Positions 1,949-47,839 of a stretch of 64,000 nt of DNA are shown here, in pieces. Both the position numbers and the translations under genes were made by a program. The notes beneath the pieces were generated by a model. The model saw only the letters and a program-made list of their open reading frames with translations, was not told the DNA's origin and did no database searches. How positions within the stretch are numbered: the stretch's first letter is position 1; every line of letters starts with the position of its first letter. The stretch spans positions 1-64,000 of the IMG/VR virus record IMGVR_UViG_3300041986_000079; one strand, 5' to 3'. This DNA comes from a virus. Its lineage: Duplodnaviria; Caudoviricetes.

Positions 1949-1951
1949 TAC

Positions 1952-21833: not shown

Positions 21834-21855
21834 ACCCTTGAAGTTTAGCTTGTTA

Positions 21856-21887
21856 AACTAGCAATATTTTAGTAAATTATAGAGTAG
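21856..21887 (+). promoter_or_regulatory. Phage promoter-like motif
   Basis: AAACTAGCAATATTTTAGTAAATTATAGAGTAG, preceded by AAGTTTAG..TTAAAC, which is shared with the copy near 25480. Confidence 0.65.
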
Positions 21888-21900
21888 ATACTATATTATT

Positions 21901-25467: not shown

Positions 25468-25494
25468 ATAAACTATAAAAGTTTAGTTTTAAAC

Positions 25495-25524
25495 CTGACA
25501 TATTTTTCGTATATTATTATTGTA
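25495..25524 (+). promoter_or_regulatory. Phage promoter-like motif
   Basis: CTGACATATTTTTCGTATATTATTATTGTA, 2 nt before the ATG at 25527. Confidence 0.6.
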
Positions 25525-25526
25525 TT

Positions 25527-31400: not shown

Positions 31401-34400
31401 TAACAATGATTATTACTTAGTTGCTATAACAGCTGATAATGATGACTTTGGTATTCGTCGTGAAGATAAGTTCAAAGAAGATATCAAGCTTATTGTTGTA
31501 AAGAAAGTAGAAGATGATTATTTCCCAGTTGGTACTGATGGTAACATCTTAGAAAATCCAACAAAGGATACTATTGTCTATACCTCAATGATGGGTAATA
31601 AGACATTGATGGCTGATATGTCTGATAAGAAGAACGCTGAAGCGGCTCTTAAGTATATCAAATCGATTTACAATGTTGAGGAACAATATGATGACGCAAC
31701 TATTATTGAAGAAGTAACATTACTTCAACAGTTTAGACAAGCAATACAGTCTGAAACAAAAGCAGGTAGACCTACAGTTCTTGATATTACTAGTGTAAGT
31801 AAAGGTGTTAAACGCTTTGCTGAATTAGATACTAATGGTAGACCAGTAGAGCAAGACTTACAAGGTATTGTTATTGATATGGATACTACTGACTTTAGAG
31901 ATCTTCGTCATCCAAGCGGAGAATCTTTGATGTTAAAGGTAGTTACTATAAAAGATGATCCTGAAGCTGAAAACGTAAGACCTGGTTCTATTGTCCTTAT
32001 TGGTAAAGAAACAAATCGTATACATAGAGTATATAATAGACAGTTATCAGAAGCTGAGATTGCTAATATTACTGGAGTATTGTCTTACTTTACTCAGTTA
32101 ATTGGTAATAAGAATCGTACTGCTCAACAGGATAGTGAGTTTATTGCTATAAAGAAATACTTATCTGGTGTTTTACATTGGGCTAGTCCATTAGAAGGAG
32201 AAGCAACTCCTTCAACAATGATGTACATTAGTGATGGAGCAATCTACCGCGGTGATCAAGGTATTAAGTTTGATTCTAAAACTATTGAGAAAAAGATGCC
32301 AGGTATGCTTCGTGGTACTTATCATTCTGTTAATAGTTCATTAGCAAGAAAAACTGATAAGTTTACTGAAGTGACTATGGTAGATGGTGTACCTCAGATT
32401 ACAGAGTACGCTAACTACAATGAATACTTATTAAGTAATGCTGATGGTAGAGTTCCTGTGTTATTCACAAATGAAAGACCGTATGACTCAAACCCAGCAT
32501 CATCTGAAGGTGTCCAGTTAGCAGGCCGTTATTTAGTTTATGCTCCTACAGAAGAAGTAGCTAGTGAAAAGAATACAGTAGCGAAAAATAAATCTCCTGA
32601 AACTGTAAAGAAAGATAAGCAAGAAGCTAACGAAGCATCTGTAAACGATAAAGGAGACCTTAAAGGGACATCGACTACTAATCCAAAAAGAAAGTGGAAA
32701 AGTAAAGCAACCACAGCACAAGACAACGTTGATTCAACAGCAGACGCTACACCAGTTGCAGATAAACCAGTTGAAGTATCTTCAGCTATTACTAGTATCT
32801 TAGATGCCGCTGATATTGAAAATATTAATCAAGCTGGTGCTGATGCAGTTGGTGAAGATATGTATCGTTTACAGCTGGGTCCTGTACGTCAAACAGAAGA
32901 CTTCTTTAAGTTAGCTGTATTCATGAAACGTGCTTTACCACAAGTACCTATCCATAAGATGGCAGATCTTATTGATAATAAAGCTTGGGGTGCTTTCAAG
33001 AATGGTGCAATCTATATCTATGAGAATGCTGAGATTGGTACTGGTTTCCATGAAGCTTTTGAGTCTGTATGGAATAGTTATTTAACTAAACAACAACAAG
33101 ACGAATTAGCAAAAGAGTTTATCAATCAATCTGGTACATTCACGAATCCATTTACTGGAGAAACAAAATCATACGCTGAAGCTAGTATGTATGATGTTCG
33201 TGAGATGTTAGCAGAATCGTTTAGAGATTATATGTTAACGGGTAATCTACCTATTAGCATGCCAGCAAAGCAAAAGACGTTCTTCCAAGAGTTGATTAAC
33301 TTTATTAGAGGGATCTTTGGTTTAAAAGAGCTTGAGTTTAATGAGTTTGAAAGTAAGATCAATAAAGTATTTACTGGTATCAACGAAGGTGAGTTTGCAA
33401 ATGCTGTACCTGTTCGTGATCTTAACAAGTTACAAACAGTATATCGTGCAATTCCTGGTACAAGCCAAGAGTTTACAAAGTACTTCTTAGATGGTGTAAC
33501 ATCTTTCTTCTTTAGAAACTTGTACATGAACAAGAAGAATATTGATGCTTTACTTGATGATAGTGCAGATACAAACGCTTTACTAGTTTCTTTATTCAAA
33601 CAATCTCTTGCTGATGCTGAAACATACACTAGAGGAGATAAGAATGAGTTCTTAGCTGAAGCTGTTGGAAGAGCAGAGACTAAGTTAAACCGTAAGTTGA
33701 CAGCACCTGAAAAGCGTGAGCTGTTCAACGCTTTACTTAATAATAAAAACACATTATTAAGCAGACATAAGAAGTTATATGATCAGTTAGATTCTGCTTT
33801 TGCAAACACAGAGCAGATATACGATCTATTCAAGACTCGTGTTAGTAAGTATGGTTTAATCTTTAAGCAATCAGACAATGACTTTAGCAGTGCAGATGCT
33901 GGTACAGATGAATTAAAAGTAACTGATAACTTAGGTATTAAAGATAGCATCACGATTGATCCACGTAAGTTTGGAGCAACAAACTTCAAGTTATTACTTG
34001 CTGGATTAACAGATGACTACTTTAATGCAAAGAAAGGTGAGATCTACTTCAAACGTAATCCGTTACAGTTACCAAAGTCTTTAAGCTACGATAGAACATA
34101 TGCTATCTTGTTAAATGAGTTAAACGGATCTGTTCAACACTTTAGAGATGGTAATATAGTTAATGCTATTGACCAGATGTTTGAACGTCTTGATGCTAAG
34201 TTTAAGATCAAGCCTGTTTCACCAAAGTCAAAAACAAAAACATATAAAGAAGGCTACGAGTGGGTTCAACGTCTAAAGGTTCGTCTTAAATATGAAGATG
34301 CTTTTGGTAAACGTGTATCAAGTGAGAACTTATCAGCTGATGATATTGAACTATTAGTTGGTTTTGAGCAGAGTTTATTAAAGATACAGAACAATCCTAT

Positions 34401-37400
34401 TCGTACAGTGTATGCAGAAGACGGTTCTATTATATCTGATGATTCTATCTTAACATCAACAACAAACGGTTTACGTGATATCTGGGCAGCAACTGCTTCT
34501 ACAGCTGCAAAACCATTAGCATTAAAAGGAAGTGATGAGCTTCTTGGTATTGATGATTCTGGTAATGTTGTGTTTGATACTCTAAGTAATCCGTATAAAT
34601 ACTTTATGTCACGTTTGACATCTGGTGGAACTATTGAAGATAAAGGAGAGGAAGCACTTGAGCGTTTAGGAATGATTGGTATTAGCTTTACTAATACTTA
34701 CTTTAATGCTGATCAATACAGAACTATCGTTAATGCTTATGCTGGTATTAAAGCTGGTATAACAAAAGGAGATATCTATAGCATCCAAACTTTGTTTAGT
34801 AAGACTGGAGCTAACGCTAGTATTACAGCATTACTTAATCTTCAGATTAATTCAACTTCTGAAGAGAATGTATTATCTCATATTACAGCTGATGGTGAAA
34901 CACAATATACAATTAGTAATCCATCAACAGCTGGGTACATTGTTAGTGCTATCAATACAGCAGCAACTCTAAAAGATTTAGTATTAGGTAACCCACAGTT
35001 TGGAACTGTAAACGAAGAGACTGGTCAAGTAACTTTACACCCATATCAACAACGCAGCTTACTACTTAAAGCAGGTGGTTTAGTGTTTGATGAGGACGGT
35101 AATAAGCGAATGATTGAAGTAGAGTCTTCATTAGAGCAAGGTACTAAAGTACCATTCACTATTGATTACAACTTAATCAGTGGTGTAATGACTGCTGGTG
35201 TTGAAGGTAAGACTACTGCTGACTTAACTGAACCAGATCGTTTAATGCAAGAGATTTATCACTTGACAAAGAACGTTTATTATACGGTTATTAACTCTGA
35301 TAAATCATCTGAGTTTGCATTATCATTACCAAAAGCATTCTTTGATATTGCAGATCTTACTGGACCAGACGGATTAAACAAAGTAAAATCAATCTATCAA
35401 GATCAGTTAGAAGATGAAGTTGATGCAGCTCTTGCTGAGTATGAGAGCAGTGCTAATATTCAGTATTATTCTCAAAAAGAAAAGAATGGTATAAACGATG
35501 TTAAAAAGTTAGGTCACTACAGAGATATCTTAGGTAAAGACTTAGTAAGCAAAGTTGCTGATATTGCTTCTGGTAAGCTTAACAAGAAAGTATTTGTTAC
35601 AAGTAATAATGTAACTCGTGCGTTAAACGAACACATTGCAAAAGGAGCTAAGGATACTATTGCAGAGTTGGTTAAGCATGATATAATCATAAAGAAAAGC
35701 AACGGTACATATGCATCATTAAGTTTAGATGCAGCATTCTTAGAGAAGTATCTTGGTGTATCTGATCCATACAAGATAACAGAAACACAAATCACTAACT
35801 TAGCTACGTTCTTATTTGTTAATAAAGAGATTGCTATTACTGAGCAGCATAAGTTATTGTATGGTCACCCAGCATTATACAAAGACTTACCAAAGCGTTC
35901 AAATGGTATCAACTCTACAAAAGACGGTATCACTGATAATAAAACTGTTCGAGCTTGGATGGATAAAAACATGCCACGTCTTGACGGTAAAGTAAGATCT
36001 AGTGAGAGTGTAGCAACAATGAAGAACCGTACTTTTGATGATATCACAGTATCTGCTTTAAGAGCTAAAGAATATGCTGAAGTTATTTATCAAGGTATGA
36101 TTGCTAATGGTGTTAAACCAGAAGCTGCATCAAAGAAACTAGGTGTTACTTTTACAAAAGAAGGACAGTTCAGTAAGTTTATTCTTGATGAGAAAAACGG
36201 TTTTACAGGTGAGATAGCTAAGTACTTAGAAATCAACGAAGCAGATGGTCAAGCATGGATTATGCCTGATATGTATCGTGACTTATTATTCTTAAGTAAG
36301 AAGTTAACACGTCAGCAAAAAGCTCAGATTGAATATGAGATGGCTTATGAGATTGTTACTAGAAGTAATAAACCAGAGGGTCATCCTGCAAAAGCAACTT
36401 ATGATGCTGCTGTATTAGCAAAAGCAAATGAGACATTAGCAAAAGGCAATCCTGGTGCTATCTTAAACGTAATCAAACCACAGTACTTTGGTTATGCTAT
36501 TGACAACAAGTTAATGCATACCGTTTTCTTAAAGAACTCAGCTCAACCTAAGTTCTATAGATTTGTTGAAGGTACTGCGTTTGAAGAGTTTTATGTTGCT
36601 GCTCAAGATGCTCAAGATGATATTATCAACTTAACGTCTGGTCAAAAGGTAGGTGCTACTTTAAATAGTCAAGGTGGATTTAGTTCTATCTACGATGATA
36701 AAGGTAATGTTAACCTTAATAGAGATTCAAAAACAGGTAAGTTATCATTCAAAGATGCTCCATCACAAACGTTAATCATGCGTTACTTTGGTATTCAGCA
36801 AGAAGTACCTTCAGTATTTAAGCATGCAGTAGTTCGTGGTACTCAAGTATCTAAGTTGATCATGTCTAACTTTAGAGTTAGAGGTAAGTATACATCAAAA
36901 GAATCTGAAGCGTTAGTAAAAGAATACAACGATATCATGATTGAGATGGTAAAGATAGGTAAGAAGTCTTTACTACAAGAGTTAGGTTTAACAGAACAAG
37001 CTAACGGTAATTACAAAGCAACAGATCTTTCAAAGATTGTTACTGTATTGCGTAATGAGTTAAAGCAGCGTGAGCTACCTGATAACGTTGTTGATGCTAT
37101 TAATACAATCATAAACGAAGAAGGTTATACTGAACTAGAGTATACACTTGATTCATCAACTGCACGTGAGAAGATAGATAATATCTTAAACGCTATTGTT
37201 GACTCAAGGGTTATCTCTGAGAAGATGCCAGGTAAACCTTTGGTACAGGTAGCTAATACGATGTTTGAAACAAAAGGTCGTTCATTTGTATACCTAAAAG
37301 ATAATGTCTACACAACTATCGAAGCTTCAAAGCTAGATACATTATCAGAAGCAGAGAAAGCAACTGTAAGAATGGTATCAAGCGATTTATCTTTCTACAA

Positions 37401-40400
37401 AAAAGGTACTGGTAAGAAAGCAAAGACTTCATCAATGGAGGTTTACTTACCATGGTTTATGGAAGATCTTGTACCGTCGTCAGAGTTAAAGTTAGTTAAC
37501 GGTATCTTAGAGGTAGGTAAGTATGAAATCGATCCTGCTTTATTAAAAGCTATTGGTTTCCGTATCCCAACACAGGGTATGAACTCTATTGATAGTATTA
37601 CAGTCAAAGGATTCTTACCAAAAGAGATGGGTGATATGATTGTGTTACCATCTGAGATCACTGGTAAATCAGGTTCTGACTTTGATATTGATAAGATGCA
37701 AGTATACCTTGCTAACCATTATAAAAATGGTAACAAGATTATTGCATACAAGTGGCAAGGTAATGCTGAAAAGACTAAAGCGTACTACGAAGAGTTGTAT
37801 GACAAGGGACAATTATTATCACCGTCTGACTTAGAAAAGATTGAGAAGTTCAAAGCAAAAGAAGCATCAACACCAGAAGGACGTATGATTCTTGCTATGG
37901 TAAGTAGCATGCTTGGCGAAGATAGTATTGCGGTTAGCTGGTTAGAAGGATTAAAGAATGCTGACGAGCGTAGAGCTAAGATTGTTGAAGCTTCTGTTAA
38001 AAAGGCTATACAAAACCGTTACATTGAAGTAATGAATGACTTAGTTACTCTACCAGAGAACTTTGCTCAGTTAATTACTCCTAATACGACAGCAACGCTT
38101 AAAGGATTAGCAAATACCATTAACAAGTTAAAAGGTAAAGAAGACGATGAGAGTTTAGGTTATGCAAACTTAAGAAGTATTGTTGCCAGCTCACGTATCC
38201 GTCATAGATTCGTTAGTGGTAAAAAGCTTGTTGGTATTGCAGCTTTGCAAATTACATCTCATATTATGTCTCAGATTGCTGGAACAAAGCTTTCTGGTTT
38301 ATATAATCCTGAGCGTATCTATTATCTAGTAGGTAAAGGTATTAAAGAAAAGACTATCAACATCCGTTTGAATAATAGCTCTAACAAAGAACTATCATTG
38401 TCATTAACGGTTACTCAGAATGGGTCATTGATCTCTGACTTATTTAACGAAGCCTTATCAGGATTTGTTGATGCAGCAAAAGATCCATTTACTTTTGACC
38501 TTAACTTAACTATGGATACTGCGTCAACGTGGTTCTATATGCAAAGATTAGGTATTGACGTTGAGGATATTGCATACTTCTTTAATCAACCAGTATTAGA
38601 TAAGTACTTTAAAGGTGTTGCTTCAAACAAGTCTTACTTCAAAAAGATTAAAGACTTCAAGGTATACAACAAAATGCTTGCGTTAGAATCTGCTGATGAA
38701 TATCTACAGTACATTCAAACTACACCTGAGTACTTAGAGATTGCTCGTGAGTTCGGTTTAGGTAAGCTAAAAGGAAGTATCCTTAATATCTATAGAGACG
38801 CTGAAGAATCAGGTGAGTACAAGTTAATGAAAGCACTTGACTTAATGCTTCAGAAGATTTATACTACTGCTCAAGATCGTAGTAAAGTAATATCAACTGA
38901 TGAGTTAGTTTCTAATATAAAAGAAGGAGCAACTATTCAAGGGCAGTTAATGGCGGTTGGTTTAGCAGAAGAGGGAAGTGAAGAAGAAACAAGTATGTTA
39001 TCAGGACTTTCTGAGTACGGATGGTCTCAGATTGGTGTATTAGCAGATTACTTAGAATACTCTGTTCAAGGTAATCAGTTAAACGATTATATCAGAGCTC
39101 AAGGTTACGATAACAAGAAATCAAAGAACATTAGAACAAACAAGATTCACCAGTCACGTTGGAACAAGATTGTTAAGGATGGCTTTATTGCTAATCCAGA
39201 AGATCTATTAAACAATACGTTTATTGGTGCAATGAAAGAACAAAAGGAATCAATCATCAAGATGTTTGAACCTTTCTTTACATTGCTTGATCGTCGTTTA
39301 GATAAAGTGTTTGATCCATTAATGCGTCAACTTGAGTCAGATGTATTTATGACTGGTGCTGATATGGATGACTTAGTTGAGAAGTATCAAAACTTTGTGT
39401 TTAACTACATTATCCAGAACACAGTATATAAGAATGCATCAGGTAAAGATGTTCGTGTTAATCGCTTCAAGAAGATGTTCTTTGGAAAAGAATCTTGGGC
39501 TATGAAGCTTCGTGATTTTAGAGAGAGTGAGGATGCAATGGTCAGAAATAACTTGTTTATCAAGAACCTTGTACCTATCATCTCATCTAATGAAGAGATG
39601 CCAGATAATATCAAGAACTTAAGAAGTACAGAAGACATAAATGATATCGTCGATTCAGCAAAAGAATTATTACAATATGCTGAGAACACAGGTAATCAGG
39701 AGTTAGCAGATTTCTTGAAGCAGATGGCTATTTTTGGTATCTTACAAACAGGTTTCCAAAAGAACTATAACAACTTCACGCCATTCTTACCAGTTGAGAT
39801 CTATTCTGAATTGTTAAAGAATATCTTGACACGTTTTAATACAACAGTTGATGTTGACTTTAATCCTGATGTTATTTGGGAACAGTTCCATCAGAATATG
39901 TATTATGATAATAGCGTAGTTCCTACTCCACGTTTCTATAAGTATCAAAAAGGTACAGACAATATTCTTATCTCTGCTGATTCAACAGATGTTAATCTTG
40001 ACTATGTTAAGCGTAATGTTGTTGTAGTAAAAGATAAACGTGAACAAGCTCAACTTATTCGTAATGGTAGACGTGATGAGATCTTTAACACTATCTTGTA
40101 TAAGAAAGGTGGCTTAACTGCAGAAGGTGAGTATATATACGAGCCTATTAATAAAGCAGGTCTTAAGTATAGATTAACAGAAGTATCGATAGATCCTTTT
40201 GCTCAATCAGTTATCAAAACTAATAGTGCAAATAGTACTGGAGCATCTTCATTAAAGAAGACTAGTAACAATGTTATTGAGGCATTATTAGAAGAAGATG
40301 AAGATATTTCAGCAGAGAAGACAGGTGCTCGTCCAGTAGGATTAGATCTTAACACTACACAAAATGCTTCTAAGCTTATTCTATCTGGTGAGAAGACACG

Positions 40401-43008
40401 TATCCACGCTTACACTAACTCAGACTTAATGCGTCTTAATGAACGTGGTATTGCAACTCTTGAGGGTAAGCAGTTCTATGTTACATACAAAGGATTACAA
40501 AGTCTTGAAGAAGCTGGTGGTAAAGAAGCTGTATTAAAAGCTGAAGGAGTTACTGAAGATCAAGTAAAAGGACGTTTAGTTATTTGGATGAAAGAGAATG
40601 TAAACAACATGAAGTTACATGTTTATGATATCTCTCCAGTTGAGTCAGGTACTACACCAACTCCTCCAACTAAACCAACAGCAAAAGAACCAGTTAAAGC
40701 ATCAATTGAAAAACTACGTATCCCTATTGATACAGTAATAACTGACTTTAGTATAGTAGAAGCACAAAGCTTATTTAATTCTGCTAATCCAACTATCGAT
40801 CAATATCAAGAAGTAGTAGATTTATACGAGTTTGAATTATCTGCTGATTTACCAACAGAAGAGTTAAGAGCAAAGCTAGAGTCACAACTTGCGGATATTA
40901 AAAAGAGTTTTAAGATATCAAATGAAGAAGCTCCAACTGAAACTTCAGTAACAGTTGTACCAACAAAAGTAGAGAATGGTATTGTTATTCCTGAGTATAG
41001 AATAGATAAGACTATCACAAACAAAGATGGTAGTAAGAGACTAGCTCATACAGATGGCACAGTAATAACTATTAATCCTGTAAAAACTGTTGACGAGTTC
41101 TTTGACTACTTTACTGGTAAAACTGGAGGAGTATCTTCAAAACAAAAAGAAGAAGTCTTAAAGCAGATGGAAGAGATTAATCCTGTATACTCTTTAGATG
41201 TATTAAAGCAGATATTAAATACTCCTAAGCTTGTCAATCTATTCTTGATATTACATGAGCAAAGTCATATAGATAATAATGACCAAGCAGTGTACTGGAG
41301 AAACGGTAAAAACTTAATGACTCAAGATAAGATTGATATTGAGATTCGTGCTACTATCGAAGCTTTAGAAAAAGTACTTCGTTACATGGAAGCAGGTCAA
41401 TCACAAGAGCCTAGCATTAATTCTTCTGAAGTAGGTACATTACAAGGTAACTTACAACCTGAAACTGAATATACACCTGGTGAAAAGTATGAACTATTCC
41501 CTGGGGTATATGCTAATGAAGGACAACGTAAAGCTATTGATGCAATGACTGCATTCTTAGAAGATCCATTTGCTAATGATTTCTTATTATCTGGTGCAGC
41601 TGGTACTGGTAAAACAACTATTGTTAAAAAAGTACTTGAAGCTTACCCTAAGAGTACTGTTGTCGGTGGAGCTATATCAGCAGATGCAAAGAACGTACTT
41701 GCAGTTAATCTTGATGGAGCGGAAGCAAAAACTCTTGCGTCATTACTTGCACTTAAACATGAATATGGTAAGGGCGGCGAATCATCGTTTAGAGAGCTTA
41801 CACCTCAAGAAAGAGCTATGAAACCTGCTAACTGGGTTGAGCCGATCAAAAAGTATAAGATTATTATTGTTGATGAAGCATCAATGGTTAGCGAAGACTA
41901 CGTAGATATGATTAATAAGCTACGTGCAAAAGGTTCAAAGATAATTTATCTTGGAGATAAAGCTCAGATTCCAGCTATTGAAGATGAAAATAATACAGTA
42001 GTTGGTGTTGCTGGTGTAAGAGCTGGTAAAACAACTCGAGATATAATGAAAGAAGCACAAGGTATTATCTTTAATAAACTTGAAGGAACAGAATCTCATG
42101 CGTATTTAACTGAGAGAATGCGTCAAGGTGCAGATAGTCCTATCTTGACACTTACAGATAAGTATCGTGATAATATCATGAACATGTTTGAAGGTAAAGA
42201 AGGTGTTGCGGATCCAGTAACAACTCGTACAACTGTCCTTGAAAACAATGAAGGAGTTAAATACTTTGATCGTACTGAGGAAAAAGAGATGATTACTGAT
42301 TATGTTAACGAACTAATCACTAATCCAGAAGATCCAAAAGCAGCAATTCTTATCGCATCAAGAAATGCAACAGTAAATGCTTACAATGAATCGGTAAGAA
42401 AGCAGTATCTTAATACTGAGGAGGTTTTTGTACCAGGCGATAGAGTTCGTGTTAATGAAACTCATGAGATGTTCGATAACGGTATCAAAGGTATCGTAAA
42501 AGAAGTTAGCTCAAATGGTATAGATGCACAACTAGGTATTGAAACATATCAGTTAATGGTTAAGATTGAATCTATAAACACAAAAGGTGAGCCTGTAACG
42601 GTTGTAGTTCCAATGGATACGATTGCTCCATCTGATATGCCTGCATTTAAAGCAGTGATTAGTAAGTTGTTTGCAACAAAAAACAGAGACGATAGAGATA
42701 AAGCAATCAGATTACGTGAAAAGTATGTTAAGTTAGCTTACAATTATGCGGTAACTGTACATAAAGTACAAGGTAGTACATACAATGCAGCATATGTTAT
42801 TGAGAATGATGTAATGACATTCAGTAGAAATAAGTTACAAAACAATCGAATGATGTACACTGCTACTAGTAGACCTCGCAAAAAGTTAGTAATTTTAACT
42901 GGACAGTCTGCTGAATCTGCAGCAAGAGCATCCCTAGGTGCAAGATTCTTAGCCAAGCGTCAAGCAGCAGCTGTAATAAAAGATAAAGATAAAGGTTGCC
43001 AATCATAA
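28408..43008 (+). CDS. Giant virion-packaged DNA-dependent RNA polymerase (crAss-type, two DPBB) fused to zincin-like, possible ASCH-like and SF1B helicase domains
   Basis: GFRIPTQG (37555-37578) and SGSDFDIDK with D-x-D-x-D at 37678-37692; EADGQ (36238-36252) and KPQYFG; HEAFE (33049); HEQSH (41254); Walker A GAAGTGKT (41593), DEASM, GD..Q, HKVQGSTY, YTATSR. Confidence 0.9.
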   Translation: MAEESQPLLTTQPNIQEVDLASYQPIATTDPLANAELESTFMASDALVKSSIADLKQSLSAPTADEMLRPIGYDPIATNKDRYTNSEYFGQLGFNPFSNNEEIYGNAQGNLNKLKNAFVGMGQLAWDQAVDQFKSWGDTFDVLGSQDISEAFKQAEMEEISRRQNAMFNANPIFETQADRESVFNFNTIATTLQQSGYAVGAMAEIAAEEVALSYLTAATFGGAAELQAARSMKLASNIAKAARRTTELAESIHTTSNMRKVFNAVNKVTKLVNPVDNVMDFASSFKALSRADELAQGVGTAARLRTAARGFGALYRDVREFNLAVSEAKAEAAGTYSELSQSMSDNFETNYGRKPTDLELKDINEQALKGAQANGAANTAIIMMSNKLSFGNILKGFKPLRYMMDEDIMKGLAVVTDKDALKLGKKVIEASDNRWLYYKNAIISNPLKYVGANLSEALQENAQSISNDAVKSWYMAKYNGQELDSKFDGIRQAAANQFTVEGAKTFISGFFTGSLLGAGAKVFEQAGSIQQYLSDKQGYTDRQTKEGTARTSIKDTINAIYANPLAYSYSKDNAAVQSNFASLLKEAAINKDKKAFNDIQDDATRQFVLTGINTGMLDLLNDRLVDYTKNLTEEEFTQAFGVEYTKENHADMVKQAQAFTQRAEQIKDIHTKLSSEYANPFNPGNYKYGTEEYIKEGMSYVAYKEAMNQLTFMQDTYQQAITRQQQVLDSIKRKPGFENVSFTDIYSLTSQPKLAEEISLLQKEADATEDAKLKGEKEAKIKSLEKYNEQLGKYLDEVNTINSSKKTPEQKATALNKALDKFTSKGLPVFTTFINDQLAKAGKLPIQDNNARSAFENLTDYFHLQNDHEALLENINYIIDPINFSKYLDRHNEEIVKLFAKRMEEKIEEEEETRKANAKKVAVDPVMDDLEGEGEGIVDNEQDTFYSRTGQDGNKPSYARAGLLKTTGSHFLDDDKTVNTENNNHNFFKFTESVAILNNDYYLVAITADNDDFGIRREDKFKEDIKLIVVKKVEDDYFPVGTDGNILENPTKDTIVYTSMMGNKTLMADMSDKKNAEAALKYIKSIYNVEEQYDDATIIEEVTLLQQFRQAIQSETKAGRPTVLDITSVSKGVKRFAELDTNGRPVEQDLQGIVIDMDTTDFRDLRHPSGESLMLKVVTIKDDPEAENVRPGSIVLIGKETNRIHRVYNRQLSEAEIANITGVLSYFTQLIGNKNRTAQQDSEFIAIKKYLSGVLHWASPLEGEATPSTMMYISDGAIYRGDQGIKFDSKTIEKKMPGMLRGTYHSVNSSLARKTDKFTEVTMVDGVPQITEYANYNEYLLSNADGRVPVLFTNERPYDSNPASSEGVQLAGRYLVYAPTEEVASEKNTVAKNKSPETVKKDKQEANEASVNDKGDLKGTSTTNPKRKWKSKATTAQDNVDSTADATPVADKPVEVSSAITSILDAADIENINQAGADAVGEDMYRLQLGPVRQTEDFFKLAVFMKRALPQVPIHKMADLIDNKAWGAFKNGAIYIYENAEIGTGFHEAFESVWNSYLTKQQQDELAKEFINQSGTFTNPFTGETKSYAEASMYDVREMLAESFRDYMLTGNLPISMPAKQKTFFQELINFIRGIFGLKELEFNEFESKINKVFTGINEGEFANAVPVRDLNKLQTVYRAIPGTSQEFTKYFLDGVTSFFFRNLYMNKKNIDALLDDSADTNALLVSLFKQSLADAETYTRGDKNEFLAEAVGRAETKLNRKLTAPEKRELFNALLNNKNTLLSRHKKLYDQLDSAFANTEQIYDLFKTRVSKYGLIFKQSDNDFSSADAGTDELKVTDNLGIKDSITIDPRKFGATNFKLLLAGLTDDYFNAKKGEIYFKRNPLQLPKSLSYDRTYAILLNELNGSVQHFRDGNIVNAIDQMFERLDAKFKIKPVSPKSKTKTYKEGYEWVQRLKVRLKYEDAFGKRVSSENLSADDIELLVGFEQSLLKIQNNPIRTVYAEDGSIISDDSILTSTTNGLRDIWAATASTAAKPLALKGSDELLGIDDSGNVVFDTLSNPYKYFMSRLTSGGTIEDKGEEALERLGMIGISFTNTYFNADQYRTIVNAYAGIKAGITKGDIYSIQTLFSKTGANASITALLNLQINSTSEENVLSHITADGETQYTISNPSTAGYIVSAINTAATLKDLVLGNPQFGTVNEETGQVTLHPYQQRSLLLKAGGLVFDEDGNKRMIEVESSLEQGTKVPFTIDYNLISGVMTAGVEGKTTADLTEPDRLMQEIYHLTKNVYYTVINSDKSSEFALSLPKAFFDIADLTGPDGLNKVKSIYQDQLEDEVDAALAEYESSANIQYYSQKEKNGINDVKKLGHYRDILGKDLVSKVADIASGKLNKKVFVTSNNVTRALNEHIAKGAKDTIAELVKHDIIIKKSNGTYASLSLDAAFLEKYLGVSDPYKITETQITNLATFLFVNKEIAITEQHKLLYGHPALYKDLPKRSNGINSTKDGITDNKTVRAWMDKNMPRLDGKVRSSESVATMKNRTFDDITVSALRAKEYAEVIYQGMIANGVKPEAASKKLGVTFTKEGQFSKFILDEKNGFTGEIAKYLEINEADGQAWIMPDMYRDLLFLSKKLTRQQKAQIEYEMAYEIVTRSNKPEGHPAKATYDAAVLAKANETLAKGNPGAILNVIKPQYFGYAIDNKLMHTVFLKNSAQPKFYRFVEGTAFEEFYVAAQDAQDDIINLTSGQKVGATLNSQGGFSSIYDDKGNVNLNRDSKTGKLSFKDAPSQTLIMRYFGIQQEVPSVFKHAVVRGTQVSKLIMSNFRVRGKYTSKESEALVKEYNDIMIEMVKIGKKSLLQELGLTEQANGNYKATDLSKIVTVLRNELKQRELPDNVVDAINTIINEEGYTELEYTLDSSTAREKIDNILNAIVDSRVISEKMPGKPLVQVANTMFETKGRSFVYLKDNVYTTIEASKLDTLSEAEKATVRMVSSDLSFYKKGTGKKAKTSSMEVYLPWFMEDLVPSSELKLVNGILEVGKYEIDPALLKAIGFRIPTQGMNSIDSITVKGFLPKEMGDMIVLPSEITGKSGSDFDIDKMQVYLANHYKNGNKIIAYKWQGNAEKTKAYYEELYDKGQLLSPSDLEKIEKFKAKEASTPEGRMILAMVSSMLGEDSIAVSWLEGLKNADERRAKIVEASVKKAIQNRYIEVMNDLVTLPENFAQLITPNTTATLKGLANTINKLKGKEDDESLGYANLRSIVASSRIRHRFVSGKKLVGIAALQITSHIMSQIAGTKLSGLYNPERIYYLVGKGIKEKTINIRLNNSSNKELSLSLTVTQNGSLISDLFNEALSGFVDAAKDPFTFDLNLTMDTASTWFYMQRLGIDVEDIAYFFNQPVLDKYFKGVASNKSYFKKIKDFKVYNKMLALESADEYLQYIQTTPEYLEIAREFGLGKLKGSILNIYRDAEESGEYKLMKALDLMLQKIYTTAQDRSKVISTDELVSNIKEGATIQGQLMAVGLAEEGSEEETSMLSGLSEYGWSQIGVLADYLEYSVQGNQLNDYIRAQGYDNKKSKNIRTNKIHQSRWNKIVKDGFIANPEDLLNNTFIGAMKEQKESIIKMFEPFFTLLDRRLDKVFDPLMRQLESDVFMTGADMDDLVEKYQNFVFNYIIQNTVYKNASGKDVRVNRFKKMFFGKESWAMKLRDFRESEDAMVRNNLFIKNLVPIISSNEEMPDNIKNLRSTEDINDIVDSAKELLQYAENTGNQELADFLKQMAIFGILQTGFQKNYNNFTPFLPVEIYSELLKNILTRFNTTVDVDFNPDVIWEQFHQNMYYDNSVVPTPRFYKYQKGTDNILISADSTDVNLDYVKRNVVVVKDKREQAQLIRNGRRDEIFNTILYKKGGLTAEGEYIYEPINKAGLKYRLTEVSIDPFAQSVIKTNSANSTGASSLKKTSNNVIEALLEEDEDISAEKTGARPVGLDLNTTQNASKLILSGEKTRIHAYTNSDLMRLNERGIATLEGKQFYVTYKGLQSLEEAGGKEAVLKAEGVTEDQVKGRLVIWMKENVNNMKLHVYDISPVESGTTPTPPTKPTAKEPVKASIEKLRIPIDTVITDFSIVEAQSLFNSANPTIDQYQEVVDLYEFELSADLPTEELRAKLESQLADIKKSFKISNEEAPTETSVTVVPTKVENGIVIPEYRIDKTITNKDGSKRLAHTDGTVITINPVKTVDEFFDYFTGKTGGVSSKQKEEVLKQMEEINPVYSLDVLKQILNTPKLVNLFLILHEQSHIDNNDQAVYWRNGKNLMTQDKIDIEIRATIEALEKVLRYMEAGQSQEPSINSSEVGTLQGNLQPETEYTPGEKYELFPGVYANEGQRKAIDAMTAFLEDPFANDFLLSGAAGTGKTTIVKKVLEAYPKSTVVGGAISADAKNVLAVNLDGAEAKTLASLLALKHEYGKGGESSFRELTPQERAMKPANWVEPIKKYKIIIVDEASMVSEDYVDMINKLRAKGSKIIYLGDKAQIPAIEDENNTVVGVAGVRAGKTTRDIMKEAQGIIFNKLEGTESHAYLTERMRQGADSPILTLTDKYRDNIMNMFEGKEGVADPVTTRTTVLENNEGVKYFDRTEEKEMITDYVNELITNPEDPKAAILIASRNATVNAYNESVRKQYLNTEEVFVPGDRVRVNETHEMFDNGIKGIVKEVSSNGIDAQLGIETYQLMVKIESINTKGEPVTVVVPMDTIAPSDMPAFKAVISKLFATKNRDDRDKAIRLREKYVKLAYNYAVTVHKVQGSTYNAAYVIENDVMTFSRNKLQNNRMMYTATSRPRKKLVILTGQSAESAARASLGARFLAKRQAAAVIKDKDKGCQS

Positions 43009-43018
43009 AATAAGAACT

Positions 43019-46000
43019 ATGTCTTGTAGTATAATTAGAAACAAAGAAGGTGAAGTAAGTAAGGTGTTGGCTCCTAATGGTAAGGAGTCAATACTTTATG
43101 ATGGTATAGTTGAACAAACAGGTAATCCAGAAGAGTCTGTTGGTATATGGGCTTTAGCTTATACAGATGCGTTCAAAGAAAACTTTGGTGATTGGGAAAC
43201 TCCAAATAATCCAGATGTTATTACACAACTAGATACTAATGGTGAGCCATCCGTTCATGATGTGCTTTCATATAGTTTACTTCCTGAAGAAGAGATAGAT
43301 GAACAAGAAGAAGTTGATCAAGTAGAAGCAGAAGAAGAAACACAATCTCCTGATAAGCAACTAAATGAGAAGATCTTAAAGTTTTTATCAAAGATTGGTG
43401 TATCCTATAATGCAGTTAATCGAATCACAGATGCTTCCGGACAATCAATATCAGCAATTGCAAAAGCAGATATGCTTAATAAGATCATTGAGGTTGTTGA
43501 AAACAGAGCAGATGCTACAACTCTTCCTGAAGAAGCAGCTCACTTCTTTGTTGAGATGTTAGGTGAGAATCATCCTTTATATAAAGAGATGTTTAATCAG
43601 ATCACATCATACAGATTATACTCTGAAGTAGTTGAGCAATACAAAAATAATCCTGAGTATCGAACAGCTGAAGGAAGAATCAACTTTGATAAGCTAAAGA
43701 AAGAAGCTATTGGTAAACTTATTGCACAGCACATTATATCTGACAGTATAAGTAAGCCGACAACAACTGAAGAGCTTGATAAGAACTTAGGGTTTTTATA
43801 TAAGTGGTGGAGTAAAGTCCTTGCTTTTGTTCAGTCTGTCTTTAATAAAGCAGAAGGACAAAATCCTTTTGCTACTGTTGCAACACAGATTAAAGAAGCA
43901 GATGTATCTGAACTTGATCAAAATAAACAACTTGAAGGAGTTTATTACCAACAAGGTGAAGGATATGATCTTTTACTTCAACATCAAAATGATATTACTC
44001 TTGATGCTAGTATTAATGAAACGACAGGTCAAAAACGTCACGATTATTACATAGCTGGTAAGCGTATTGCACGAACAGTAACTACAACTAAGGTAGATGC
44101 TTATTATAAGAAGTTATTCAAGCATGATAATAGAAGCTCTGCTCAGAAAGAAATAGATTTATTAAAAGCTGAGTATGGTGATATTATCCATGAGGTTATC
44201 GATGAAATAGTTAAGAGCTATGTTGATCCAATAACTCATGAGATTAGAGAAGAGCGTACACCAGTAAAACATCCTATTGTTGAGATTGAAGAGTACCAAG
44301 AAATACTTAGCAAGCTTGAAGATTTTATTAAGCCGTTATTAGGAAGCTATCCTACTGGTACAAAGATTCTAACAGAGGTACGTATCTATGATGCAAAACA
44401 AGATATGGCAGGTAGTATTGACTTTTTAGCAATACGTCCTGACGGTACTGCAGATATCTATGATTGGAAGAGTCAAGAGATTTCAAAGAACCAAGAAGAT
44501 CTTAAACCTTGGAAAGCAGAAGCATATCGTATACAATTAGGTGAGTACAAGCGTATCCTAAAAGAGCAATATGGTATTAGAAAGTTTGATAAAGTAAGAG
44601 CTATTCCTATCAGAACAGATTTTTACTGGACTAAAACAAAAGACGGTGAGTATAGTATTGACGCATTAAAAGATGTTGAGATAGGTAACTACAACTCAAC
44701 TCTTATCAGTGAAGATCAGTCTTATTTATTACCAGTGTTACTAGACGAAGAGACAGGTTTTAAGAATATTGATGAGTTAATTAAAAAGTTACAAGGTATT
44801 CACGATCGTATTGAGAAGAAACGTGTTAGAGGATCTGAGGTATACATTAAGAATGAAGAGTTAAAAGCTTACAAGCTTGCAATCCGTGACTTACAATTAC
44901 GTCAGTCATTAGGTAGATTTATTGATCTAGGTTTCTTAGAGATTGATCGTTACAACTACTTAGTAAAAGAAGGTCGTTTAAAGTCTAAAGACATTATAAA
45001 AGCAAAAGAAGTTCTTGAAGTATTTGCATCAACATCAGGTATACTAAAAACTACTTTTGATGAGATGCTTAATGAGATGAAAGAACAAGGTGATGAAGAA
45101 GGATTAGCTTTAGCATTAGAGCTAGAACAGTCTTATAACAACATGACTGTTGCTGCTAATAGTACTTTGAAAGATATTGAGGAAGAGATGAAACAAATCG
45201 CTACTCAATTAGCAGAGCGTAATGGTATCAACAATCTATTAACTGCAGAAAAGAAAGTAGGCTTCTTTGCTGGTATGTTTAACTCAATGAGTACTCAACC
45301 AACAAAGGCAGTAAAAACTTTCTATAAGTTGATCAGAGAGGCACAAAGTAACAGAGACGTTAAGTTTGACCTTATGAGCACAAAGATGATTGCTCTAAGA
45401 GAAGGCATGATGAAGTGGGGAGCCTCAAAAGGTTTAACAGGTGAGAAGTTGTTTAACATTATGTTAGGTTTTGATGATAAGGGTAAATGGAATGGTAAGT
45501 TTCTTGCTCGCTATGAGTCAAAATATTATACAGATAAAGAACAAGCAACTCGTAATAGAGATAAGAAGTGGTTTGAAGAGAATACAATCTTTGATCAAAC
45601 AGCTTATGAAGAAGAAAAAGCACGTAAGAAAAAATACTATGATGAGTTAGTTGTTGATTCAGATCCTGAAGTTAATGCAGAGAAGACAAAGGCTATGTAT
45701 GAGCGTTGGATTACTAATCATAGTGCAAAGTTTGAAGGATATTTTAATCTTAAGAGCAAGTTTGTAAAGCCAAAAGAAAAGTGGGAGACCACAAGATGGA
45801 AAGAACTAACTGCCGTTGGTAATGAGCCAGCATATGAAACCTATAAGTTCTTTAGAAGCTTAGTATCAAAAGCAGAAGACATTGGTATGCTAGATGAGTT
45901 TAGCCCTAACTTTATACCAAATATGTATAAAGGCAAGCTAGATCAGATTACTTTTGGTAACTTCAAAAACATCTTTTCAAATGCTGGTTTCTTTGAGAAT

Positions 46001-47839
46001 CTAGCAGTTGATAGTGGTTCAGAGTATTTTCCTGATACAGATCCTGTGTCTGGTGAAGTACTTAACCGTGTACCAGTATTCTATACAGGAGACATTGGTA
46101 AGATAAACGAAGATGGATCAAAAGATTATACAAACAAATCAGTAGACTTATTTAAAGTCTTTGGTATCTGGGGAGCTCATATGTATTCTTATGAAGCAAT
46201 GCAGTCAATCGAAGATGACGCATTAGTATTGGCTGTTGTTGAGCGTACTAAAGATAGTTTACTAACAAACATGTTCAACGAGGTTAAGCGTCAAGCAAAC
46301 GGTCAGATTACTACAATAAAAGGTAATGAGCGTAATGCCGATATCTTAGATGACTTCATGAACTACTATCTATACAATAAGCGTACAGGTGAGCAGTATG
46401 ATGTTAAGATAAAACTTTTTGGTAAAACTATATCTTTAACAAAGACTCTTGAGTTCATTTTAGGTTTCTTTAGCTTAAAGACATTAGCATTAAACCCTTT
46501 ATCAGCATCAGCTCAGTTTGTTGGTGGTACAGGTAACGCATTCTTACTAGCATCAAAGAAAGTACTATTTAATACTACTGACTGGACTTCTGCTATGTAT
46601 AGTCTATCAAAGATGGATAAGAAGTCATATGCTTTACTAGATCACTTTAACTTATTACTTGAAGATACAAAGCGTAATAAGCTTGATAAGTTATCTGTAT
46701 CTAAAGTAATGGCTAATGTTACAGTTGATAAAATGTATTTCATGCAGCGTATTGCAGATAAAGGTGTTCAGCATCCTATCGGTATTGTAATGATGAAAAA
46801 CTACATGCTTGATGAAACAGGTAAGCTTGTTAATATCATGCAGTATGTGAAGAGTCAATACGACTATGCAAACTTCTATACAACATATGCAACTGAAGCA
46901 GAGCGTAAAGCAGTTGAGAAAGAGATCGATGAAAAAGTAGGTAAGTTAAAAGAAACAAAAAGTATTTATGCTACTGCTGAAATCAAAGATGATACTTTGG
47001 TAACACCAGGATTAGAGCCAGGAACAAAAGCTGCTGAAGAGTTTAGAGCTGCTGTAAAGAAAGCAACTAAGATTATTCTTGGTAACAGTACATCAGATGA
47101 TATTAACTTGATTAGAACTACTTCCTTAGGAATGGCTCTAATGCAGTTCCGTTCATGGATTCCTCAGATGTTTAAAGAACGCTTTGGTGAATTATATAAA
47201 GACGATGATTTAGATATCTACCAACAAGGTAAAGTATCTCTTCTTATCACTGAGTTGTTTTCAAAACGTATTGGTCAGCTTGTTAAAGGATTTATTCCTT
47301 TTGCTGGTAACCAAAGTATGATTGATGCTGCAAGAGTAAGATATCAAGAAGAGAGAGCACAAGCTTTTGAACTAGGTCAAGAGTTTGATATTACTGAAGG
47401 TGAGTATGTTGATATGTATCTTGGTAATGTTAGAAGCGCAATGAGAGAGATCATGATTGTTCTAGCATTTATGGCTTTATTGTATGCAGTAAAACCTGGT
47501 GATGATGATGATGAAGAATATAAAGGTATGCGTAAGTATTTAGCAAGAGCAATGTCTAAGTACTATAACGAGTTTGCATTCTATTATAACCCGCTTGAGT
47601 TTACAAACTTGATCAATGCACCATTCCCAGTAGTAAACCTTGGTATTGATGTTATGAACTTATTCAAGCATACATTAGAGCAAGCTTATGGTGGAGCAAC
47701 TGGTAATGTTGAGTATCAAGATGATGCAAAGCCGTTAAAGTACTTAGGTAAGATTATGCCTATCACAAAAGAACTCTTAATGATGGGTGCCATCTTTGAT
47801 GATGACTTCAGAAAAGAGTGGGATATCAGAATACAGTAA
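43019..47839 (+). CDS. Large polyvalent cargo protein with an EExxH zincin-like motif and a PD-(D/E)xK nuclease
   Basis: APNGKESIL...AFKENFGDW N-terminus; LPEEAAH (43523-43543); E...AGSIDFL...IYDWKS...YRIQL nuclease motifs (44375-44540); MQFRSWIP near the C-terminus. Confidence 0.75.
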   Translation: MSCSIIRNKEGEVSKVLAPNGKESILYDGIVEQTGNPEESVGIWALAYTDAFKENFGDWETPNNPDVITQLDTNGEPSVHDVLSYSLLPEEEIDEQEEVDQVEAEEETQSPDKQLNEKILKFLSKIGVSYNAVNRITDASGQSISAIAKADMLNKIIEVVENRADATTLPEEAAHFFVEMLGENHPLYKEMFNQITSYRLYSEVVEQYKNNPEYRTAEGRINFDKLKKEAIGKLIAQHIISDSISKPTTTEELDKNLGFLYKWWSKVLAFVQSVFNKAEGQNPFATVATQIKEADVSELDQNKQLEGVYYQQGEGYDLLLQHQNDITLDASINETTGQKRHDYYIAGKRIARTVTTTKVDAYYKKLFKHDNRSSAQKEIDLLKAEYGDIIHEVIDEIVKSYVDPITHEIREERTPVKHPIVEIEEYQEILSKLEDFIKPLLGSYPTGTKILTEVRIYDAKQDMAGSIDFLAIRPDGTADIYDWKSQEISKNQEDLKPWKAEAYRIQLGEYKRILKEQYGIRKFDKVRAIPIRTDFYWTKTKDGEYSIDALKDVEIGNYNSTLISEDQSYLLPVLLDEETGFKNIDELIKKLQGIHDRIEKKRVRGSEVYIKNEELKAYKLAIRDLQLRQSLGRFIDLGFLEIDRYNYLVKEGRLKSKDIIKAKEVLEVFASTSGILKTTFDEMLNEMKEQGDEEGLALALELEQSYNNMTVAANSTLKDIEEEMKQIATQLAERNGINNLLTAEKKVGFFAGMFNSMSTQPTKAVKTFYKLIREAQSNRDVKFDLMSTKMIALREGMMKWGASKGLTGEKLFNIMLGFDDKGKWNGKFLARYESKYYTDKEQATRNRDKKWFEENTIFDQTAYEEEKARKKKYYDELVVDSDPEVNAEKTKAMYERWITNHSAKFEGYFNLKSKFVKPKEKWETTRWKELTAVGNEPAYETYKFFRSLVSKAEDIGMLDEFSPNFIPNMYKGKLDQITFGNFKNIFSNAGFFENLAVDSGSEYFPDTDPVSGEVLNRVPVFYTGDIGKINEDGSKDYTNKSVDLFKVFGIWGAHMYSYEAMQSIEDDALVLAVVERTKDSLLTNMFNEVKRQANGQITTIKGNERNADILDDFMNYYLYNKRTGEQYDVKIKLFGKTISLTKTLEFILGFFSLKTLALNPLSASAQFVGGTGNAFLLASKKVLFNTTDWTSAMYSLSKMDKKSYALLDHFNLLLEDTKRNKLDKLSVSKVMANVTVDKMYFMQRIADKGVQHPIGIVMMKNYMLDETGKLVNIMQYVKSQYDYANFYTTYATEAERKAVEKEIDEKVGKLKETKSIYATAEIKDDTLVTPGLEPGTKAAEEFRAAVKKATKIILGNSTSDDINLIRTTSLGMALMQFRSWIPQMFKERFGELYKDDDLDIYQQGKVSLLITELFSKRIGQLVKGFIPFAGNQSMIDAARVRYQEERAQAFELGQEFDITEGEYVDMYLGNVRSAMREIMIVLAFMALLYAVKPGDDDDEEYKGMRKYLARAMSKYYNEFAFYYNPLEFTNLINAPFPVVNLGIDVMNLFKHTLEQAYGGATGNVEYQDDAKPLKYLGKIMPITKELLMMGAIFDDDFRKEWDIRIQ

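Follow-up and report, generated by a model that had tools for sequence, protein, structure and literature searches.

The giant open reading frame and its surroundings

The window analysed here is a 64,000-nt stretch of an IMG/VR record that is 86.9 kb long and about 69% complete. Positions 28408-43008 of its plus strand are taken up by a single open reading frame (ORF) of 4866 codons, which has no internal stop when translated with table 11 and encodes a protein of about 0.54 MDa. The product is the giant virion RNA polymerase (RNAP) protein of a divergent, uncultured crAss-like phage. From the N to the C terminus it consists of a region with a variant zincin-like motif, an RNAP body of the gp66 type, a cassette of three modules and a Dda/RecD-like SF1 helicase. 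The zincin-like domain (aa ~1490-1640; 32875-33327) carries the variant motif HEAFE at aa 1548; local alignment with nine homologues showed HEAFH or HEAWH at this site in remoter relatives, followed by a conserved LAE.F. The region homologous to gp66 (aa 2152-3397; 34861-38598) matches this phi14:2 protein in a phmmer search of PDB (6VR4, 6vr4_A; E 6.5e-23) and in blastp (E 2e-33, 23% identity over ~1200 aa), which also gives a match to crAss001 gp50 (E 7e-23), and includes the catalytic DFDID at aa 3091-3095 (37678-37692). The conserved body continues through 38599-40227, as family-wide homology stops only at aa ~3940: the homologues P0003, P0008-P0010, P0012 and P0013 align by blastp from aa ~4-27 to 3927-3960 with 45-50% identity, and their alignment restarts past the linker, at aa ~4336-4360.

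The neighbouring genes place the ORF in a virion block. Those upstream match virion structural PHROGs and peptidoglycan-hydrolase families, and the gene immediately downstream (43019-47839, plus strand; 1606 aa) is, by position and by weak blastp matches, the counterpart of the RNAP-associated virion proteins crAss001 gp49 (E 5e-9) and phi14:2 gp65 (E 5e-5). The gp65-like gene stands in the same place in the related loci L010, L011, L014 and L015 and in the phages cr118_1 and cr50_1. In phi14:2, the corresponding virion RNAP block is gp67-gp66-gp65 (Drobysheva et al., preprint 10.1101/2020.03.07.982082), whose annotation rests on virion MS/MS, and gp47, gp49 and gp50 have been detected in crAss001 virions. 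The window thus shares with phi14:2 a homologous RNAP core with its DFDID, the same virion/cargo gene block and the gp65-like gene downstream. In contrast, gp66 has only 2180 aa and no helicase, whereas the window's protein is about 1600 aa longer at its N terminus and continues, past the RNAP body, into three linker modules and a helicase.

An earlier note on this DNA had claimed that the 4866-aa ORF bearing the DFDID reads without a stop into an SF1 helicase, so that a virion RNAP and an SF1B helicase share one frame. Translation of the ORF and the family matches of both parts bear this out, and the helicase is intact. The chance that an assembly chimera or an overlooked stop, frameshift or intron has merged two genes is negligible. 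Close relatives with a split form do exist, in which the helicase gene lies 47 nt past the RNAP gene, in a different frame, and ahead of the gp65-like gene. Against an artefact, the same unbroken ORF is present in two independent assemblies, L015 (98% aa identity) and L014 (73% aa identity), one a contig from a JGI metagenome and the other from Logan, which derive from different samples, and fused forms occur in further protein clusters (see below). In addition, dN/dS is 0.025 for the RNAP body, 0.14 for the linker and 0.107 for the helicase (the last value against L015). The join between RNAP and helicase is therefore real and under purifying selection.

The linker modules and the helicase domain

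The linker consists of three mobile add-on modules: ASCH-like, helical and HExxH-bearing. Module A (aa 3975-4090; 40330-40677) is a small domain with the motifs G.KT..R, EEAGG and YVYDI.P. An atlas feature score of 0.93 to ASCH clusters gives a lead towards an ASCH-like domain; Pfam and PDB sequence searches returned no match, and pLDDT is only ~50-59. Module B (aa 4083-4185; 40654-40962), which has its own hits in the linker search, is modelled by AF2 as a helical bundle (pLDDT 80-94), and its structural matches are generic helical bundles with Z under 6. Module C (aa 4186-4345; 40963-41442; pLDDT 85-98) carries the HExxH motif HEQSH at 41254-41268. A search with the whole linker retrieved 90 representatives at E<=1e-10, nearly all of them matching module C, as do all of the strongest hits (45-63% identity). 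The same module is found N- or C-terminally on dozens of proteins with a D[FY]DxD motif and is a frequent addition to giant RNAP proteins of the crAss type. Its fold weakly resembles PprI/IrrE (8sln_A, Z 5.2) and a YbeY-like protein (1oz9_A, Z 4.9), and these resemblances, together with sub-threshold Pfam matches of its small homologues to YgjP-like and Peptidase_M78, suggest that module C is possibly a small zincin-like metallohydrolase.

The helicase domain (aa 4360-4830; 41485-42897) matches the PHROG 325 family 'Dda-like helicase' (E 9.7e-71, aa 4361-4830) and the Pfam families AAA_30 (72 bits against a cut-off of 27, aa 4370-4526) and UvrD_C_2 (33.9 against 27.4, aa 4780-4829). Its Walker A motif GAAGTGKT begins at 41593, as the earlier note had reported, and spans aa 4396-4403 (41593-41616) with K4402 as the P-loop lysine. 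Motifs II to VI were likewise recovered as DEASM, GDKAQIP, TERMRQ, TVHKVQGSTY and YTATSRPRK. The comparison with Dda-type helicases that the note had called for supports its assignment: in addition to the PHROG 325 match, the motifs align with their equivalents in the solved Dda-family helicases 9kwf, 8jx6 and 3upu. In an alignment of 11 family members, DE (motif II), GD..Q (III), R (IV), H.QGS.Y (V) and Y.A..R (VI) are invariant. The description of TLASLL as divergent has to be corrected, because its T, S and last L are nearly invariant across the family and the segment corresponds in the alignment to TIHS(I/L)L in both Dda and 9kwf. A basic tail of 36 aa and the stop codon (42898-43008) complete the ORF; identity of the tail is 100% to L015 and 42% to L014. 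The domain is oddly diverged in comparison with P0014, to which it is 37% identical as against 82% for the body. T4 Dda, the Dda-like helicases of N4-like phages (e.g. G7C) and RecD/RecD2 share with it the SF1 motifs, PHROG 325, AAA_30 and UvrD_C_2, and identity to the N4-like group is 26% over 94% of the domain. However, Dda/RecD types are stand-alone replication and recombination proteins of ~440-500 aa, whereas that of the window is predicted to form the C-terminal part of a virion protein of 4866 aa.

Distribution and origins of the fusion

The helicase is shared by no fewer than 28 metagenomic clusters of giant proteins, nearly all of which also share the RNAP region and carry a D[FY]DxD motif. 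The fusion is likewise present in the GenBank Suoliviridae cr118_1 (QOR58373, 4946 aa) and cr50_1 (QOR58058, 4774 aa), where the product is annotated as 'DNA helicase' or 'exonuclease V'. The note's reservation that the fusion might be common and already described therefore holds for its first part; as to the second, no paper discussing an RNAP-helicase fusion was found in the literature. In IMG/VR, a helicase fused to RNAP is confined to the four nearest helicase relatives. The other 76 loci kept have more distant helicases, and those whose frames were checked are stand-alone with one exception, a giant ORF without an RNAP match. The position of the helicase also varies, being N-terminal in P0015 and immediately past the RNAP in P0019 and P0029, and the slot in front of it can hold AlkB-like, NADAR or ART-type modules in relatives.

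The giant proteins of cr118_1 and cr50_1 resemble that of the window in combining an RNAP region and a C-terminal SF1 helicase in one ORF, followed by a gene of 1400-1700 aa and then by a replication block on the opposite strand. In contrast, identity is only 23-25%, in the RNAP and helicase parts alike, and both phages come from the human gut whereas the window's phage comes from another environment. In the helicase tree, the window's clade is almost entirely RNAP-linked, while the fused helicases of Suoliviridae cluster with helicases that other crAss families encode as separate genes in their replication modules. A single clade uniting the window and Suoliviridae fused helicases was rejected by the AU test (p 9e-9). 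The link between helicase and RNAP thus appears to have arisen more than once, in at least two helicase lineages, and the fusion in cr118_1 and cr50_1 was probably a separate event from that in the window, because their helicases fall in a different clade.

Possible roles of a helicase carried with the polymerase

By analogy with related polymerases, and along the lines of the earlier note, it is tentatively proposed that the RNAP-tethered helicase is delivered in the virion, unwinds the entering genome and supplies a single-stranded template. The giant protein would be made late, alongside other cargo proteins, and packaged in the capsid; like its homologues gp66 and gp50, it would leave the particle before the DNA or together with it. 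The helicase would then work on the entering genome, most likely by loading at a nick or at the end that enters first and unwinding from there, and the resulting single strand would be the template that the polymerase favours in vitro. It could remain tethered to the polymerase, or act freed beside it if the HExxH module cuts the chain. This reading has indirect support: the link between helicase and RNAP recurs and arose independently more than once, and split relatives keep the helicase gene right behind that of the RNAP. In addition, single-stranded or denatured DNA is a good template for gp66 and double-stranded DNA a poor one, and the gp66 relative QDE-1 of Neurospora, also a two-barrel polymerase that transcribes single-stranded DNA, requires the helicase QDE-3 and the single-stranded DNA-binding protein RPA. 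The analogy is a functional one, because QDE-1, QDE-3 and RPA are separate proteins acting in eukaryotic RNA silencing and the helicase is an SF2 RecQ enzyme, not SF1B. Neither phi14:2 nor crAss001, the two experimentally studied crAss-like phages, encodes an AAA_30 SF1 helicase anywhere in its genome, so the polymerase family needs none in general.

Another possibility, nearly as likely, is that the giant RNAP protein serves chiefly as a vehicle (a polyvalent protein sensu Iyer et al., 2017; PMC5512222) for a general-purpose helicase with no part in transcription. Released perhaps by an embedded metalloprotease, such a helicase could serve replication initiation, recombination or genome repair, or it could clear host or defence proteins off the DNA, much as T4 Dda displaces bound proteins. 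Iyer et al. include N4 vRNAP with its zincin-like domain among the polyvalent proteins of phages and conjugative elements, and the likeness extends to unrelated enzyme modules, HExxH modules included, within one huge polypeptide of the virion block. The AlkB-like, NADAR and ART-PolyVal modules of relatives add to it. Helicases also occur in the polyvalent proteins described there, mainly SWI2/SNF2 and UvrD types in conjugative elements, and the RNAP is the T7-like one of N4; in 12 of 19 matching passages of that paper there is no fusion of a two-barrel crAss-type RNAP with a Dda-like helicase, and the word 'crAss' is absent from its text. The related helicase of Intestiviridae and Crevaviridae has a gene of its own (~480-500 aa) next to UDG and DNA polymerase, and the kinship of the Suoliviridae fused helicases with this replication-module group favours the carrier reading over a role in transcription. 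Moreover, neither the source record nor cr118_1 or cr50_1 has an SF1 helicase (for the source record, an AAA_30 helicase) besides the fused copy, so any replication role there would be its own. HExxH-type motifs at aa 1548 and aa 4283 would agree with the cleavage that the literature expects of such polyproteins, but the protease nature of module C is weakly supported and the motif at aa 1548 is a variant, HEAFE. It also counts against a mere carrier that the helicase is joined to, or lies directly behind, the RNAP-bearing protein specifically and not other cargo proteins, and that the window's helicase clade is almost all RNAP-linked.

DNA entry in T7 and N4 is driven by RNA polymerase transcription. 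By analogy, and in line with the second suggestion of the earlier note, a helicase anchored in the ejection complex might translocate on the DNA and draw the remaining genome into the cell, and the cargo proteins of crAss001 have been proposed to exit the virion before the DNA. This is quite improbable, since SF1B helicases move along single-stranded DNA whereas the entering DNA is duplex, the helicase sequence has no sign of a membrane or ejectosome anchor, and crAss-like phages without the helicase still inject their DNA.

In conclusion, the window's protein adds one more case of an architecture that recurs in many uncultured phages and in reference crAss-like genomes. The assortment of AlkB-like, NADAR and ART modules in front of the helicase in relatives looks more like a kit of delivered effectors than like a dedicated cofactor. 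Delivery of the helicase together with the polymerase is probable, with the incoming DNA as its substrate; exposure of a single-stranded template is the most likely outcome, a role in replication, repair or anti-defence being nearly as likely.

Reading frame, polymerase and helicase

The giant ORF occupies window positions 28408-43008 (+) and comprises 4866 codons in a single open frame without any stop (translation table 11), which bears out the uninterrupted RNAP-helicase frame reported in an earlier note on this DNA. The coordinates given in that note were exact, since the Walker A motif GAAGTGKT starts at nt 41593 (aa 4396; P-loop lysine K4402) and the DFDID motif lies at aa 3091, where a motif scan found it to be the sole D[FYWLIVM]DxD match in the 4866-aa protein. 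The RNAP part matched the sequence of the solved structure of phi14:2 gp66, a crAss-like virion RNAP (6vr4_A), with an E-value of 6.5e-23 over aa 3039-3399, and full-length gp66, a two-barrel polymerase, with an E-value of 2e-33 across aa 2152-3397 (blastp). The C-terminal 470 residues scored above the curated Pfam cut-offs for AAA_30 (72.3 vs 27 bits), AAA_19 (49.9 vs 25.1 bits) and UvrD_C_2 (33.9 vs 27.4 bits), and matched PHROG 325, 'Dda-like helicase', with an E-value of 9.7e-71. The SF1 assignment made in the earlier note was confirmed by motifs I, II, III, IV, V and VI, all of which are intact with their catalytic residues; those of motifs II-VI are invariant in the helicase family alignment. 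The proposed likeness to Dda and RecD held as well, with a residue-by-residue alignment of motifs I, II, III, V and VI to solved structures, the nearest being the Dda-family entries 9kwf and 8jx6, Dda itself (3upu) and also RecD.

Two further contigs have this ORF, equally free of interruption and with the same neighbours: L015, a Logan contig (4866 aa, 98% amino acid identity), and L014, from a JGI metagenome (4902 aa, 73% identity). Comparison with the Logan contig gave dN/dS values of 0.025 for the RNAP body, 0.14 for the linker and 0.11 for the helicase, and therefore indicates purifying selection on the whole chain, join included. Support for the join comes from these independent contigs and from dN/dS. 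A chimeric or false join is ruled out for practical purposes.

Modules upstream of the helicase

Upstream of the polymerase body lies a zincin-like domain (aa ~1490-1640, + strand) with the motif HEAFE at aa 1548 (nt 33049-33063). HEAFE is present at this site in the window and in P0014, P0003, P0008 and P0023, which are representatives of giant metagenomic protein clusters, and HEAFH, HEAWH or HEGFH is found in more distant giant proteins; in the lineage of the window, a glutamate replaces the second metal-binding histidine. The gp66-equivalent body follows (aa ~1630-3940, + strand), with family-wide homology at 45-50% identity. This homology breaks at aa ~3940 and restarts at aa ~4360, leaving a variable linker (aa 3940-4360) whose version in the window is common only to P0002 and P0014. 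A HMMER search with the linker retrieved 154 representatives and resolved it into three independent modules, designated A, B and C. At E<=1e-10 there were 90 representatives, nearly all matching on module C, and the strongest showed 45-63% identity. Pfam gave nothing usable in the linker, the N-terminal 3000 aa or the downstream ORF, and a Foldseek search of the PDB with an AlphaFold2 model of the linker returned no match at E<=0.001. In that model modules B and C are confident (pLDDT 80-98) and module A is low. Fold comparison by VIA-align wide gave Z values below 6 throughout, and such weak matches do not show new folds.

Module C (window 40963-41442, + strand) is a ~140-aa HExxH module, with HEQSH at aa 4283. 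Dozens of giant proteins with a D[FY]DxD motif, most of them without a helicase, have it at one end, N- or C-terminal, and it also occurs as small stand-alone proteins. Its weak fold matches are to PprI/IrrE (Z 5.2) and to a YbeY-like hydrolase (Z 4.9), and its small homologues gave sub-threshold Pfam matches to YgjP-like and Peptidase_M78. Weak fold matches describe module B as a generic helical bundle. Module A (window 40330-40677, + strand) is a small domain with the motifs G.KT..R, EEAGG and YVYDI.P, shared with stand-alone phage proteins of ~100-150 aa and with one NADAR-bearing protein (P0215). It had no Pfam match and no PDB sequence match, including in a profile search of PDB sequences; a likeness to ASCH came only from language-model features, with an atlas score of 0.93 to clusters of which 40% carry PF04266. 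These assignments for the three modules should be taken as leads rather than findings. In other relatives the position directly before the helicase is taken by an AlkB-like 2OG-Fe(II) oxygenase (PF13532, above cut-off; aa 4085-4301 in P0008 and aa 3497-3734 in P0004), and precomputed Pfam annotations place NADAR or ART-PolyVal families in still others. The site between RNAP body and helicase is a cassette slot. As in polyvalent virion proteins (Iyer et al. 2017), the chain of the window joins several unrelated domains, namely the RNAP, the helicase and the three linker modules, in a virion-gene context, and the linker search indicated that the modules are mobile among giant proteins.

Distribution and ancestry of the linkage

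The earlier note had proposed looking for the C-terminal helicase in homologues of the polymerase. Among proteins of 2676-8516 aa, to which the search was limited, at least 28 cluster representatives share the helicase at 25-97% identity, and nearly all of these giant clusters likewise carry a D[FY]DxD motif along with the RNAP region. Most often the helicase lies at the C-terminus; P0015 has it at the N-terminus, and in P0019 and P0029 it comes straight after the RNAP. Giant proteins of the same design are present in the GenBank Suoliviridae genomes cr118_1 (4946 aa) and cr50_1 (4774 aa), where they are annotated 'DNA helicase' or 'exonuclease V'. The best shorter helicase homologues measure 650-2500 aa. 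Split forms were seen on two contigs (L010:1-17732 and L011:1-17472), where a gene of ~4040-4200 aa is followed, after a gap of 47 nt, by a helicase gene in a different frame that encodes 919-1068 aa with an unrelated N-terminal extension; a gp65-like gene comes next. The upstream gene of L010, which the comparison covered, matches the RNAP region. In the Intestiviridae cr8_1 and cr11_1 and the Crevaviridae cr127_1 the homologue is a stand-alone protein of ~480-500 aa encoded beside UDG and DNA polymerase, and phi14:2 and crAss001 have no such helicase.

Querying IMG/VR with the single helicase sequence gave no match. An alignment query did find relatives, and 80 loci were kept, of which only the four nearest are RNAP-fused; the other 76 had no RNAP-core match. 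When the reading frames of nine of those 76 were checked, eight proved to be stand-alone genes. The ninth (L039:7487-19192) is a 3902-aa open frame with a related helicase near its N-terminus and no match to the RNAP-core profile; this is perhaps a polyvalent protein of another type that bears a helicase.

A quick maximum-likelihood tree of 53 helicase domains divides in two, with 98% SH-aLRT support for each side. One of them unites the window with 21 fused forms, three split forms and three others, namely two stand-alone helicases and the L039 giant ORF. On the other side, the fused helicases of the Suoliviridae and that of P0029 group with stand-alone crAss replication helicases in a 99% clade, alongside Dda-like helicases of other phages. 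The helicases of cr118_1 and cr50_1 lie opposite that of the window across a 98%-supported split and represent a different lineage. Forcing all RNAP-linked helicases into one clade cost 124 log-likelihood units and was rejected (p-AU 9e-9), on this quick tree and for a group named post hoc. It follows that the RNAP-helicase link was formed, or lost, on more than one occasion. Within the family of the window, helicase identity tracks body identity, except for the window and P0002. The helicase of this pair shares just 37% identity with that of P0014 (window 41485-42897 vs L014:19171-20571), compared with 82% between the bodies. A long stem leads to the pair, and the Walker A motif, GAAGTGKT in the window, reads GRGGTGKT in nearly all relatives. 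Vertical descent of the window helicase is not rejected by the AU test (p 0.14 and 0.44), so module swap and rapid divergence are equally open.

The giant crAss-like virion RNAP protein, at times fused with partners and add-on domains, is a known kind of protein (Drobysheva et al., preprint; Iyer et al. 2017, PMC5512222). The RNAP-helicase fusion was not found in the text of Drobysheva 2020, Yutin 2021 (main text and preprint), the Crassvirales review of 2023, the crAss001 atlas of 2023, Guerin 2018, the epsilon crAss-like phage paper or the P23-45 paper. Term searches of the Yutin 2021 supplements, which covered text only, returned nothing relevant, and Fig. 3 might depict the fusion. The earlier note had left open whether this exact fusion is already catalogued: the design exists in many metagenomic clusters and already in GenBank reference genomes, under the bare label 'DNA helicase', and is not a new kind of system. 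The window contributes a divergent environmental member, whose helicase belongs to another lineage than that of the gut Suoliviridae and whose linker cassette is new.

Genome context and possible roles of the helicase

The parent IMG/VR record measures 86.9 kb and is ~69% complete by CheckV estimate. Its layout is crAss-like: a tail-fibre gene is followed by large virion-structural and peptidoglycan-hydrolase-bearing genes, the giant ORF and a 1606-aa gene (43019-47839, + strand), after which the opposite strand encodes a replication block (PolA, exonuclease, primase and DnaB). Similarity of PolA was uninformative for placing the phage in a family, and TerL, portal and MCP are absent from the examined part of the record; the 5' half of the giant ORF had no blastn match in the GenBank phage collection. 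The 1606-aa gene weakly resembles crAss001 gp49 and phi14:2 gp65, which puts the giant ORF in the late virion/cargo block beside a gp65/gp49-like gene, a synteny kept in relatives. The L014 orthologue of this downstream gene (20725-25575) has a faint precomputed PDDEXK_1 match. Two large cargo-type genes (17487-21833 and 21901-25467) each contain an L-alanyl-D-glutamate peptidase-like segment (phrog_2307), as expected of ejected wall-degrading proteins. A promoter-like motif, GTAWATTAT, has six copies on the + strand (window 4265, 4869, 4921, 10694, 21872 and 25509), all in the first 26 kb, although six copies alone carry no significance (at least six in 12 of 100 shuffles). A check for a promoter within the ORF, ahead of the helicase, placed none of these copies in or after the giant ORF and gave no excess of sigma-70-like or terminator-like sites. 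The lack of the motif inside the giant ORF suggests that the helicase is probably co-transcribed with the cargo genes. The chain combines a virion-type polymerase with an apparently active helicase, is under selection and is encoded among cargo genes.

Virion MS/MS underlies the annotation of phi14:2 gp65-gp67, and crAss001 gp47, gp49 and gp50 (the last a homologue of gp66) have been detected in virions. By homology to these cargo proteins, the giant protein would be packed in the particle and then ejected. The helicase could open the entering DNA for the polymerase. Published work describes gp66 as good on single-stranded or denatured DNA templates and poor on double-stranded DNA (Drobysheva et al., preprint 10.1101/2020.03.07.982082), and its eukaryotic relative QDE-1 requires the helicase QDE-3 together with RPA. 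Because of this biochemistry and the recurrent independent linkage, opening of the entering DNA is tentatively put forward as the best single explanation, at a likelihood somewhat short of even. A more specific form is rather doubtful: here the Dda-like helicase would serve the polymerase as a dedicated partner in initiation, be co-ejected, unwind the entering genome end and make the single-stranded template, and for that purpose would have been joined to it at least twice independently.

The RNAP protein could also act as a carrier of delivered enzymes, the helicase serving replication, repair or counter-defence, a close rival that is only slightly less likely than the opening of the DNA. It is favoured by the kinship of the Suoliviridae helicases with replication-module helicases, by the presence of AlkB, NADAR and ART modules in the same slot, and by the model phages that manage without the helicase. 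The fused copy is also the sole SF1 helicase of these genomes, and in the record of the window it is the only AAA_30 helicase. The carrier role and the opening of the template are compatible with each other and do not exclude one another. It is unlikely that the helicase works as a motor that pulls the DNA into the cell, the other role that the earlier note had entertained.

The crAss-like phages are among the most abundant gut viruses and are common in the sea. How their virion RNAP, which in purified form is good only on single-stranded DNA, is supplied with template inside the cell is an open question, and the missing factor has its most obvious candidate in a helicase repeatedly and independently tied to the RNAP, fused or adjacent. 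The fusion makes the question of crAss-like early transcription clearly and cheaply testable. If the helicase were indeed a dedicated initiation partner, this would answer how crAss-like virion RNAPs find their template in vivo and would parallel the QDE-1/QDE-3 pair of eukaryotic RNA silencing. Further, the C-terminal end of the RNAP is a slot for swapped delivered enzymes, which include AlkB-like, ASCH-like, HExxH and NADAR modules, and this bears on what phages inject alongside their DNA.
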